Assembly: GCA_031260805.1 (NCBI GenBank)
Contig: JAISKV010000004.1
Location: 4,227 to 68,226 of the forward strand
Reading direction: 5' to 3'
DNA from: Rickettsiales bacterium
GTDB taxonomy: Bacteria > Pseudomonadota > Alphaproteobacteria > Rs-D84
Length of the DNA stretch: 64,000 bases
The notes under the pieces were generated by a model that saw only the letters and a list, made by a program, of their open reading frames with translations, did not search any database and was not told the origin of the DNA. Positions 8,530 to 11,909 of this stretch are shown here, piece after piece (the stretch's first letter is position 1; every line of letters begins with the position of its first letter). A program made the translations under genes and the position numbers.

Positions 8530-11151
8530 TCAAATATTGTCATAGATTGCGGTTATTTTATCGGCCATTGTTTTTGCGGTGAAATTATTCAGATAATGCC
8601 GGCGCGCGCATTCGCCAATTTTCACGCGCTGATTTTTGTCATTAATCAGCCCTATTATTTTATCCGCCAGATCATTCGTATCAACGCGCAGCCCCCGTTT
8701 TTCATCCCATACGGGGCTTATCTTTACCGCGGTGCCGGGCGCGAATATTTCGCCCAGGCCATCAATGTCCGTCGTGATAATCGGCAATCCGAACGACATC
8801 ATTTCAATTGCCGCGTACGAGCATTGCTCTTGCAGCGAAGCAATAATTCCGATATCCGCGGATTTATAATATTCGCACAATTTGTCAAATTCAATCGTTC
8901 CCAGAATATTAACCGGCAGATTTAATTTGTCTATTTTCTTTTTATATGTTCCGCTTATCGCGCCGGCGACATCCAGACGGACATCGTATCCGCGGGCAAT
9001 GACTTTCGCGACGGCTTCCACGATAAAGTGCAATCCCTTGCTGGGGATTTCGGATCCCGTGAACAGCAAATTGAACCGCCCGCTTGTTTTGTATTCGCGC
9101 GCAAAGTTTTCCGCGCGGTCTGCGATTCCATTATAAATGCATTCGGATTTGGCACCGCATAAATTTCTTGAAAAATCCGCGCCGTTTTTTGTGCAGCATA
9201 TTAACTTGTCGGAATTCAGGTAAGACATTTTCTCAAAGTTTTCAACAATGAATTCGTCGTTGCATATTCCGTTCTGCGCCATTTTGTACAATTTGTTAAA
9301 TTTGGCAGGATTGGAATTAAAATAACTTTTCCAAGGCATGCAATGCAGGTGCGATATGATTTTCGCGCCCGACTTGCCGCGTATGAATTCCGCAAAGCCC
9401 ATCAGGTTCAGCGTATGCAGATGCAAAATTATGTTTTGTTTATTATCAAACAAATGCCTTATCATGTGCCATACGAATTCAGGCTGGGAATCCAGCAAAT
9501 TAAAGTGAACTTGGTTTATCCCGATTATATATTCGTTTCCATTGTCGCGGAAAAACACATCCCGCCCGACAATTATTTTTATACTGCGAACGATAACATT
9601 GCCGCGGATTTGCAGTTCTTTTTGCAATTCATCAAGATATCTGACGACCCCGGATACCCCGGAATTAGAGATGTTCATGAAAAACACGGTTCGTTCCGGC
9701 GGCAATTTAGCAAGTTCCGCAGCGCACCAATTGGTTGTATTCTTATCGTCGCAGCCCTTTGCAATTCCGTCCAGATGCGCGCGGCGAATATTTTCGCTGA
9801 TATCAGACTTGTGCTTTTCCAAGACTGAAATAACGGAATTCACATTGATTTTGTATTTTTTCTGATGCAGAAAATAATGAACGGTTTGTTTGTTCAGAAT
9901 GGATAGTTTGTATTTTTTATGATATCGCGCCAGAAAATCCAGATCTTGATACCGTTCCAACTGTTCGTCCCAGAGAATATCCCGAACGCTGTCCGCCGTC
10001 ATGACCCAGGTTGATGTCTGGGCGACGAACGGTACGCGCAAAAGGAAATTTATCATAGGCTCGCCCAGCCCCGGCAATCGCGCCGGCACAAGTTGTTTTT
10101 GGTTGATGACCAGGTCGCCGTAAACGCCATCGGATTTATCCCGCATCAAAACACGCAGTGATTCTTCCAAATGTTCCGGCACCCATGAATCATCGGCGTC
10201 CAGGAAAGCGATATATCTGCCGCGCGCCGCCTGTATTCCGGCATTGCGCGCGACATTTGCATTCTTGTGCGGCAGTTTTATCAGCCTGATGCGCGGGTCG
10301 GTGTGGCGCGCGATTTCTGATACGGTTTTGTCCGTGCTGCCGTCGTCAACAATGATGATTTCGGTATTGAACAGCGTTTGACTTATAACGGATTGGATTG
10401 TATCAAATATAGTATCCTGGACATTAAAGGCCGGAATTATCACGCTGGTCAAAATGTCTGGGAAAAATAATTCGTTAATCCGCGCAATGGATTTCAATTG
10501 AATGTCTTTCTGCGTCGCGGATACGGATTTGTCAGACACGCGGTATGCGGTCAGCGGTTCGGCAATGCAGTGATGCCGGCCGCCATTCTTTGCAATATCG
10601 CACCATAATTTGTAATCTTCGGCGGCGGGGAAATCGCCGTATTCCAGATTGTGCGCGGTCAGGAAGTCTTTGCGGATAACCGTGGTCGGATGAAAAATGC
10701 AATTTCCAAATTGCAACTCAAAAAACAAATCGTCTGTTTCCGTCTTGGATTTGGCAAGCGTGCCGGATCCGATAATATTCATCCAGGAACTGCAAATCGC
10801 AATATCCGGATTGTTGTTCATGAAATGAAATTGTTTTTCCAGACGGTCCGCCCGCATGATGTCGTCAGCGTCATGCCGCGCGATTAAATTTGCGCGCGCG
10901 CGTTTGATACCGATATTTAATGATTCGGAAATCCCGCTGTGTTCTTTGTTAATCAAAACAATGCGCGGGTCGGTGTGGCGCGCGATTTCTGATACGGTTT
11001 TGTCCGTGCTGCCATCATTGACGATAATCAGTTCCAGTCCGGAAAATGTCTGATTTAATACAGAACGAATTGAATCCGCAATAGTTTCCTGCGCATTATA
11101 TGCCGGCATAATCACGGATATCTTAATTGCGTCAGAGTTCATCCGAATCAT
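8530..11151 (-). CDS. Multidomain glycosyltransferase (two GT2 domains plus a C-terminal GT1/GT4-type domain)
   Basis: Two IVNDGSTDK / IVDDGSTDK DxD-type GT2 N-terminal motifs and a GT4-like C-terminal half; internal DNA duplication noted in findings. Confidence 0.8.
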   Translation of the reverse strand: MIRMNSDAIKISVIMPAYNAQETIADSIRSVLNQTFSGLELIIVNDGSTDKTVSEIARHTDPRIVLINKEHSGISESLNIGIKRARANLIARHDADDIMRADRLEKQFHFMNNNPDIAICSSWMNIIGSGTLAKSKTETDDLFFELQFGNCIFHPTTVIRKDFLTAHNLEYGDFPAAEDYKLWCDIAKNGGRHHCIAEPLTAYRVSDKSVSATQKDIQLKSIARINELFFPDILTSVIIPAFNVQDTIFDTIQSVISQTLFNTEIIIVDDGSTDKTVSEIARHTDPRIRLIKLPHKNANVARNAGIQAARGRYIAFLDADDSWVPEHLEESLRVLMRDKSDGVYGDLVINQKQLVPARLPGLGEPMINFLLRVPFVAQTSTWVMTADSVRDILWDEQLERYQDLDFLARYHKKYKLSILNKQTVHYFLHQKKYKINVNSVISVLEKHKSDISENIRRAHLDGIAKGCDDKNTTNWCAAELAKLPPERTVFFMNISNSGVSGVVRYLDELQKELQIRGNVIVRSIKIIVGRDVFFRDNGNEYIIGINQVHFNLLDSQPEFVWHMIRHLFDNKQNIILHLHTLNLMGFAEFIRGKSGAKIISHLHCMPWKSYFNSNPAKFNKLYKMAQNGICNDEFIVENFEKMSYLNSDKLICCTKNGADFSRNLCGAKSECIYNGIADRAENFAREYKTSGRFNLLFTGSEIPSKGLHFIVEAVAKVIARGYDVRLDVAGAISGTYKKKIDKLNLPVNILGTIEFDKLCEYYKSADIGIIASLQEQCSYAAIEMMSFGLPIITTDIDGLGEIFAPGTAVKISPVWDEKRGLRVDTNDLADKIIGLINDKNQRVKIGECARRHYLNNFTAKTMADKITAIYDNI

Positions 11152-11909
11152 TCAGATTCGTCCGGATCAGGTCCCCAAGCGCGACTTACCGCGTCCGCTG
11201 TTCCGCCCAAATACCCATCTATATTGGCATACTCCATTAATGGCACGCTCTCGGTAAGACTTGTCGCGACTTGAATTGTGGCAAGCCCATTAATTAGAAT
11301 GGCTGCCAGGCCGGTAATTGATTCTCTGACAGCCTGTTGTGCCATTCCGTCCCCCACAATTCCGGAAATATCAAATAGTATGCCGGTTACCCCTGCCATT
11401 TGGTATGTGAGGTTATCAAACTCATCTCGGGATGCAAATCCGGAAAAATTTGTCGTTAAAAGCCCCGTAATGCCAATAGCATAAATATCAACGGTTCCAG
11501 CGGAGTGAAAAGTTGGTTCTGTTCTGGCAATTGTAGCAAGGCCAGTAATTATTTTACTCACTTCACCCCCGGAAGAAATAGAAAGAGACGCTTCATACGA
11601 ACCATCATATTCCCCGTAAAGTGATTGCGCCAGATTATCCGCAATGGAATCCAAGTCTGGTTTGTTTTTAATAAAATTATTCTTGGTGCTGTCCGATTGA
11701 TTCCAATCCGCGACCGAGTCTGTCAGCGCGCCCGCGACATATTCGGTGCTGGCAAGATCAGCAGATGCCAAGCCCGGCGCGGCAACCGCCGCCAAAATAG
11801 ATCCAATCGTAATCGTGTGTAATTTTGGATTTACTTTTACTCTACTCTCTCTCTCTCTCTCTCTCTCTCTCTCTCTCTCTCTCTCTAGAGTTCCGCGGTT
11901 TTTTATCAT
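11148..11909 (-). CDS. Secreted or anchored hypothetical protein with N-terminal (Glu-Arg)n tract encoded by a (CT)n repeat; translationally coupled to the glycosyltransferase
   Basis: ATGA overlap with the downstream GT gene; hydrophobic segment ITIGSILAAVAAPGLASA after the RE tract; no alternative start between repeat and signal segment. Confidence 0.6.
   Translation of the reverse strand: MIKNRGTLERERERERERERESRVKVNPKLHTITIGSILAAVAAPGLASADLASTEYVAGALTDSVADWNQSDSTKNNFIKNKPDLDSIADNLAQSLYGEYDGSYEASLSISSGGEVSKIITGLATIARTEPTFHSAGTVDIYAIGITGLLTTNFSGFASRDEFDNLTYQMAGVTGILFDISGIVGDGMAQQAVRESITGLAAILINGLATIQVATSLTESVPLMEYANIDGYLGGTADAVSRAWGPDPDESE
11855..11886. repeat. (CT)16 dinucleotide simple sequence repeat inside the 5' coding region
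   Basis: Counted directly from the sequence. Confidence 0.9.

Follow-up and report, generated by a model that had tools for sequence, protein, structure and literature searches.

The DNA analysed here (the window, 64,000 nt of contig JAISKV010000004.1 from an uncultured 'Rickettsiales bacterium') carries a pair of minus-strand genes in which a small orphan open reading frame (ORF), ORF253, directly precedes the gene for a three-domain glycosyltransferase, GT873. Close behind its start codon, ORF253 contains a long CT repeat (AG on the coding strand), and it is this repeat and the ON/OFF switching that it might confer that concern us. The pair, flanked by tRNA-Ala (8408-8483) and ligA (12538-14514), occupies a region with a reduced G+C content. 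This two-gene islet is located 3′ of tRNA-Ala, and some 3.4 kb separate it from T7-like genes for scaffold, capsid and tail-tubular proteins. Read from upstream to downstream on the minus strand, the locus consists of the following features:

11943..11972, minus strand: candidate sigma-70 promoter, predicted from reading the sequence, with TTGCTA (11967-11972), an 18-nt spacer and TATAAA (11943-11948), preceded by an AT-rich stretch
11916..11921, minus strand: Shine-Dalgarno (SD) sequence AAGGGG, 6 nt upstream of the ATG at 11907-11909 (duplex energy with the anti-SD)
11148..11909, minus strand: ORF253, encoding an orphan protein of 253 amino acids (ORF list)
11845..11886, minus strand: perfect (CT)21 tract of 42 bp, (AG)21 on the coding strand (exact regular-expression count, Tandem Repeats Finder and the sequence itself)
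11837..11844, minus strand: stops of the two wrong frames, TAG at 11842-11844 and TAA at 11837-11839, within 8 nt of the tract, in a stretch that includes a degenerate (AG)2 remnant (in-silico variants)
11760..11816, minus strand: signal-peptide-like hydrophobic segment with an A-S-A cleavage-type site, residues 32-50 of ORF253 (Kyte-Doolittle 19-residue mean of 1.62; sequence rules)
11643..11714, minus strand: one copy of the phage tail-fibre repeat motif VADWNQSDSTKNNFIKNKPDLDSI, residues 66-89 of ORF253 (phmmer, motif hidden Markov model)
11140..11151, minus strand: gene junction, where the ORF253 TGA (11148-11150) overlaps an ATG (11149-11151) as ATGA, with a second ATG at 11140-11142 (sequence)
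8530..11151, minus strand: GT873, with two GT2 domains (residues ~8-215 and ~234-430) and a GT4/GT1 domain (~499-870) (Pfam)

The tract occupies codons 9-22 of ORF253, where it encodes alternating Glu and Arg (ERERERERERERE), and it is bordered by a degenerate CTCTA (11840-11844). An earlier reading of this DNA, made from the letters alone (the original prediction), had counted 16 CT units here; regular-expression counting and Tandem Repeats Finder both correct this to 21. The repeat is the sole long microsatellite of the window. Since the next-longest dinucleotide runs in the 64 kb reach 5 units by the same count, a run of this length is far beyond chance. As is expected of a contingency locus, the repeat is 100% perfect, has a unit that is not a multiple of three, and is long enough for slipped-strand mispairing. 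The longest homopolymer of the window is a separate feature, a G9 run at 13021-13029 within the essential ligA gene (in the region encoding ...QAGGGLE...).

Changes in the number of units have sharply defined consequences for the reading frame. Among in-silico variants of ORF253 built with n=17-25 units, n=18, 21 and 24 alone yield a full-length protein (251-255 amino acids), while n=17, 19, 20, 22, 23 and 25 yield peptides of 19-26 amino acids that stop 0-2 codons past the tract. The proposal that the frame shifts when a single unit is gained or lost is thus borne out, with a premature stop at every count tried that is not a multiple of three. Equally, the codons that separate the tract from the N-terminal hydrophobic segment include no ATG, GTG or TTG, which agrees with the earlier statement that an alternative start is lacking there. 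The first in-frame canonical start after the tract is a TTG at codon 39, which lies within the hydrophobic segment and has a poor SD. An in-frame change of three units adds or removes one neutral Glu-Arg pair and keeps the net positive charge of the n-region. In the present assembly, ORF253 is in frame, or ON.

The start codon upstream of the tract is well equipped for translation. With a duplex energy of -7.5 kcal/mol, the SD of ORF253 is among the strongest in the window, where 28 likely gene starts have a median of -3.0 and a best value of -8.7 kcal/mol. The TTGCTA-18-TATAAA promoter, read from the sequence, would plausibly put the start of transcription upstream of the ATG at 11909; a consensus scanner missed it because position 6 of its -10 hexamer is an A. 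Judged from these signals, the tract appears to lie inside the translated part of ORF253, downstream of the predicted start codon. The ORF253 frame has the top codon score of the six frames (0.02 versus -0.42 or lower for the others). Because the tail-fibre repeat motif stands in the same frame, the frame appears to be genuinely coding, and on this sequence evidence it encodes, or recently encoded, a real protein.

The predicted protein begins with MIKNRGTL, continues with the Glu-Arg repeat, SRVKVNPKLH and a hydrophobic stretch (TITIGSILAAVAAPGLASA) followed by D, and ends with a body of 203 amino acids. The order of elements is Sec-like: SRVKVNPKLH as positive n-region, TITIGSILAAVAAPGL as an Ala-rich hydrophobic core, A-S-A, then D. 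The n-region as a whole is unusually long (31 amino acids) and contains 11 K/R versus 7 D/E. By these sequence rules (charged n-region, Ala-rich h-region, A-S-A site), ORF253 is predicted to be exported or secreted. The tract had been described as lying between the ATG and the only hydrophobic export segment; its position is as described, while the word 'only' has to be dropped, as a second segment at residues 197-216 (ITGLAAILINGLATIQVAT) is equally hydrophobic (Kyte-Doolittle 1.63 versus 1.62 for the N-terminal one). An AlphaFold single-sequence model of ORF253 is uninformative (predicted local distance difference test score, pLDDT, 39.6).

Database comparisons of ORF253 converge on a single short motif. 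ORF253 has no Pfam, PHROG or NCBIfam match. An exhaustive phmmer search with the post-repeat part as query, against 1.84 billion representatives at E <= 0.001, returned 395 proteins, all of which match through the single short stretch VADWNQSDSTKNNFIKNKPDLDSI. In the large matched proteins, this motif (DWNQxD...IKNKP) is repeated 3-15 times, as seen in pairwise alignments, and several of the matches examined carry phage domains (Phage_base_V with Collar and Gp10_C, Mtd_N, BppU_N, or tail PHROGs). Residues 66-89 of ORF253 match the consensus of these tail-fibre and baseplate repeat proteins, (Q)sDWNQtDst..dYIKNKP (P0121, P0122, P0136), and the 'GLASADLASTEYVAGAL' in front of the motif is similar to 'GLMSAADKTKLNGIASGA', found before the repeat in P0239. 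A hidden Markov model (HMM) of 650 motif units gives ORF253 40.5 bits (E 7.5e-12), with 4.5 bits for the next best of 1,231 six-frame ORFs in the window, a contrast that is partly circular since the units come from proteins found with ORF253 as query. Unlike the tail-fibre repeat proteins, ORF253 has one copy of the motif rather than 3-15, lacks Collar, Gp10_C, Mtd_N and BppU_N domains, and has an N-terminal export-like signal. Beyond the motif, no relatives were found by a word-indexed protein search or in genome, metagenome and viral contigs, and tblastn gave no match among 50,697 phage records. A bona fide tail fibre is ruled out by the single motif copy, the lack of any tail, baseplate or receptor-binding domain, and the lack of a phage tblastn match. 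Given the probable T7-like prophage remnant nearby, the motif itself may be of phage origin.

GT873 matches Pfam glycosyltransferase families above their gathering scores (PF00535 with 219 bits in two stretches, PF13439 with 32.3, PF00534 with 71.3 and PF13692 with 75.9). Its best PDB and NCBIfam matches are of the polysaccharide type (chondroitin synthase, TuaG, EpsE and WcaA), all below equivalog cut-offs, and by sequence it resembles a generic cytoplasmic glycosyltransferase of the polysaccharide type. No finding ties it to protein glycosylation or indicates that ORF253 is glycosylated or surface exposed, and the glycosylation of ORF253 raised by the original prediction is pure speculation. 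The proposed ATGA stop/start overlap of the two genes holds for the 873-amino-acid ORF; in the public annotation, GT873 starts 9 nt further on and a 5-nt gap takes its place. That record (MDR0803723.1, P0001; 870 amino acids, 100% identical, 'MAG: glycosyltransferase [Rickettsiales bacterium]', where MAG stands for metagenome-assembled genome) begins at the second ATG. Neither GT873 start has an SD (both -3.2 kcal/mol), and the junction is tight; for these reasons, initiation on GT873 by ribosomes that terminate on ORF253 is plausible. With a gene that bears a simple sequence repeat (SSR) directly upstream of, and co-oriented with, a glycosyltransferase gene, the locus has the layout of the lex2AB type.

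A similar pairing recurs elsewhere. Two distant relatives, P0017 and P0015, cover most of GT873 (31% identity, 73% coverage), and in both cases an overlapping upstream gene encodes a small cysteine-rich protein that is secreted: 253 amino acids on a Logan contig (L010, 2964-3725) and 203 amino acids in a 'Rickettsiales bacterium' MAG (L011, 1495-2106). The two cysteine-rich proteins form one family (E 3e-14 between them) to which ORF253 does not belong, and they have no Pfam match. As the gene for an exported protein overlapping a GT2+GT4 gene recurs, these loci lend modest support to a functional link between the two genes, and the cysteine-rich protein gene and the GT2+GT4 gene may form a conserved two-gene module; the repeat itself is confined to this window. 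In a full-length GT873 homologue from a Bacteroidia MAG (L001), GT4 and GT2 are split into separate genes in another order, with no comparable upstream gene.

Taken as a whole, we consider it probable, if by no means assured, that (AG)21 is a contingency switch driven by slipped-strand mispairing in the 5′ coding region of a gene for an exported orphan protein. The anatomy is a good match for an ON/OFF frame-shift switch, because the tract is long, perfect, of a unit that is not a multiple of three, and placed behind a start with a strong SD, because the wrong frames stop at once, and because a rescue start is lacking. The ON/OFF architecture is convincing, and length variation, the defining property of such a switch, is presumed here. 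With translation starting at the ATG at 11909, the tract would add a charge-neutral (Glu-Arg)n stretch in front of the signal-peptide-like segment. With 21 units, or any other count divisible by three, the 253-amino-acid protein (or its slightly longer or shorter version) would be made; with any other count, ribosomes would stop at the TAG or TAA, with no canonical restart before the export segment. A perfect tract of 42 bp would be expected to gain and lose units at high frequency during replication, leading to a mixture of ON and OFF cells.

The switch may also have a secondary effect on the SD-less GT873, whose translation might depend on ribosomes finishing ORF253; this would be exerted through lost translational coupling, and it is a tentative proposal that we hold to be somewhat less probable than its opposite. 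The steps proposed here draw on general knowledge, namely the hypermutability of long perfect microsatellites and the coupling of termination to reinitiation. If the two genes are coupled, OFF cells would make less GT873 and display a different surface polysaccharide, with escape from phages or grazers as a plausible benefit.

Several well-studied systems share parts of this arrangement. For the tract, the closest match is, by analogy, the CT repeat of Helicobacter pylori oipA and related outer-membrane protein genes: oipA (hopH), sabA, hopZ and babB carry CT repeats in the 5′ region encoding the signal peptide, oipA is switched ON/OFF, and its named CT patterns have 5-11 units (PMC10564699). 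ORF253 has in common with this type the CT/AG unit, a position after the start codon and before the export signal ends, and the frame-shift ON/OFF logic. It differs in that the oipA repeat encodes Leu-Ser inside the hydrophobic core, while in ORF253 the purine strand is coding and gives Glu-Arg ahead of the core. Its 21 units exceed the 5-11 of oipA, it is an orphan unrelated to the Hop family, and its host is an uncultured 'Rickettsiales bacterium' MAG, whereas H. pylori is a studied pathogen. A survey of (AG)n that covered Mycoplasma, Rhizobiales and Rickettsiales was essentially concerned with (AG)3-5 (PMC4516964), which makes 21 units exceptional for that group.

For the gene arrangement, the closest analogue is H. 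influenzae lex2A/lex2B. There, a tetranucleotide SSR is found in lex2A, upstream of the glycosyltransferase gene lex2B, and lic1A belongs to the lic1ABCD operon (PMC3116884). As in ORF253-GT873, the repeat of lex2A/lex2B and lic1A lies in the first gene, and one or more genes that follow serve the synthesis of a surface glycoconjugate. Expression of lex2B reportedly depends on the frame of lex2A. ORF253 differs from lex2A in its dinucleotide rather than tetranucleotide repeat and in being an upstream ORF of 253 amino acids with an export signal. A third comparison is with the O-antigen biosynthesis genes of Vibrio cholerae O1, whose phase variation alters a phage receptor (PMC3441752). If coupling holds, ORF253-GT873 would likewise generate stochastic heterogeneity of surface polysaccharide. 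Phase variation also affects the lipooligosaccharide and lipopolysaccharide glycosyltransferases of Neisseria, Campylobacter and H. pylori. In these O-antigen, lipooligosaccharide and lipopolysaccharide systems, the repeat, usually a homopolymer, sits inside the biosynthetic gene, whereas here it is in a separate upstream gene.

A number of observations weigh against the switch. No variation in repeat length was seen: the locus is represented by a single assembly in the resources searched (genome, metagenome and viral collections and a protein database), and an exact search of metagenomes with 30-nt flanks found no second copy. These resources contain no close genome that would allow lengths to be compared (LigA identity reaches 62% at best). 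Logan SRR14710919 contains fragments of this organism, among them OMP188 and LpxI contigs of 1.4 kb and 1.0 kb, neither of which reaches the locus. The related loci L010 and L011 have no SSR. The in-frame state is weak evidence alone, because it has a prior probability of one in three. The codon usage of ORF253 is atypical (score 0.02 versus 0.35-0.57 for core genes), as is its G+C content at third codon positions (GC3; 0.41 versus about 0.63), and the gene is thus compositionally foreign or young. In a collection of 15 billion proteins, ORF253 was found neither in full nor in two versions with alternative starts, and the products of both flanking genes of the contig (P0001 and P0271) are present there; ORF253 may lack an annotation in public records. 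An orphan with atypical codon usage that is absent from the public protein collection could be a decaying gene. With respect to GT873, the ORF253 mRNA is G-rich (C/G 0.75) with one short C-rich window, for which reason Rho-dependent polarity is not obviously favoured, and an internal promoter for GT873 is possible.

The strongest alternative, which we regard as unlikely yet deserving of serious attention, is a neutral AG repeat in the decaying remnant of a tail-fibre-like phage gene, unstable but with no adaptive switching, whose intact frame is a one-in-three accident. That a single 24-residue tail-fibre motif survives in a protein otherwise without relatives would fit such decay, as would the atypical codon usage and GC3, the missing protein record, and the setting in a lower-G+C islet at tRNA-Ala, about 3.4 kb from T7-like genes without a portal; a link between long SSRs and pseudogenes has moreover been reported in Mycobacterium leprae, according to a passage of PMC4516964 that cites the report. 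Decay accounts less well for 253 uninterrupted codons behind a strong SD at the correct spacing, for a signal-peptide-like segment in frame right after the tract, and for OFF frames that both hit immediate stops. The tight GT873 junction resembles that of the related loci, and a search for an att (attachment-site) direct repeat of the tRNA 3′ end was negative.

Considerably less probable is a regulatory role of the tract, with translation starting downstream at a non-canonical codon, an ATT (codons 33, 35 or 38) or TTG 39, and the tract in the 5′ untranslated or promoter region, its length setting the level of transcription or translation by degrees instead of all or none, for instance as an SD-like purine run or as H-DNA. 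In its favour, no homology supports the eight codons before the tract, no canonical promoter on the minus strand was reported by the consensus scanner, and (AG)n triplexes with regulatory potential have been proposed (PMC4516964). The SD of the ATG at 11909 is nevertheless far better than those of the downstream candidates (+0.7 to -3.1 kcal/mol, against -7.5), a start at TTG 39 would cost the protein its charged n-region along with half of its hydrophobic segment, and a plausible promoter is in place upstream of the ATG. Least probable of all is that a metagenome assembler made the tract length or the join, so that the intact ORF is not a true haplotype, for while the DNA comes from a 70,768-bp MAG contig and the second assembly of the organism (Logan SRR14710919) is highly fragmented, with no contig carrying the locus recovered, 42 bp is shorter than a standard read, the sequences upstream of the tract (promoter, SD and ATG) and downstream of it (signal peptide and motif) make up one coherent in-frame gene, and composition is continuous across the tract.

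We return to the contingency switch and to what it would mean. Should the tract vary, SSR phase variation, documented mainly in a handful of host-adapted pathogens, would operate in an uncultured alphaproteobacterial lineage of which this contig is the only representative found, and the orphan exported protein and GT873 would be marked as surface determinants under fluctuating selection by phages, grazers or a host. Should the tract be invariant, it would merely be an unusually long microsatellite in a decaying gene. A far-reaching version of the switch, which we consider improbable, is that in this apparently non-pathogenic lineage the one (AG)21 tract jointly controls a tail-fibre-derived exported protein, which might act as receptor mask or decoy, and a coupled GT873 that remodels polysaccharide, amounting to two-layer anti-phage bet-hedging beside a prophage remnant. 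If true, environmental Rickettsiales-like bacteria would join the known hosts of SSR contingency loci, with a design in which a leader protein gates an enzyme and the signal peptide carries a neutral Glu-Arg extension. As ORF253 is absent from the public protein collection, repeat-containing contingency genes may be systematically missed in MAG annotation.

Beyond tRNA-Ala lies the T7-like podovirus structural block already mentioned, which is probably a truncated prophage remnant, because no portal gene precedes the scaffold gene:

208-5096, minus strand: T7-like podovirus structural block (Pfam, PHROG)
4497-5096, minus strand: scaffold (PF05396)
4107-4373, minus strand: Lys/Ala/Pro-rich ORF with KKPAAKK repeats
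3138-3953, minus strand: major capsid (PF19821/phrog_3437)
2284-2808, minus strand: tail tubular A-like (phrog_394)
575-2287, minus strand: tail tubular B-like (phrog_376)

The possibility that the ORF253-GT873 islet is bounded by an att repeat of tRNA-Ala was rejected, as no direct repeat of at least 11 nt was found. Between the block and tRNA-Ala, 5808-8327 on the plus strand encodes a cysteine-rich protein of 839 amino acids whose N-terminus resembles a signal sequence and whose C-terminus has a membrane segment rich in Ala, Ile and Val; the gene is convergent to GT873 across tRNA-Ala, and its product has no Pfam, PHROG or NCBIfam match. Kinship with the cysteine-rich proteins of L010 and L011 was considered and rejected for want of significant similarity.

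On the other side, between ORF253 and ligA, a nested palindromic element at 12036-12214 has outer arms of 15 nt (100%) and inner arms of 29 nt (97%; CCACCCCTTCGCTTGGCGAAGGGG...). A motif similar to it, CCACCCCT...AGGGG, opens contig L008 of the same organism, and the element may be a repeat of the repetitive extragenic palindromic (REP) or miniature inverted-repeat transposable element (MITE) kind. Just upstream of ligA, at 12295-12420 on the plus strand, lies a small lipoprotein-like ORF (MKKTILILMTFLLVAGC..., 38-41 amino acids), which has no entry in the gene-position index.

Repeats of other kinds are found throughout the window. Many intergenic tandem arrays of heptamers have a unit that differs per site (TTAAGGT, AAAGTGA, AGTTATT, TTTCACT and others), and a period that stays at 7 while the sequence changes is unusual:

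3049-3135: heptamer array
20484-20613: heptamer array
42073-42170: heptamer array
43442-43557: heptamer array
17208-17244, 18145-18174, 18923-18954, 35307-35337, 38867-38895, 50757-50799, 57594-57624 and 63706-63735: further heptamer arrays

Several of these arrays are inverted pairs at gene ends and would form long hairpins with arms of 31-40 nt and 88-100% complementarity. Finally, a 31-bp tandem repeat of 3.8 copies with 96% identity (CCACACCCCGTCGTCATCCCCGCGCACTGAA) occupies 31535-31653, near tRNA-Leu (31815-31899).

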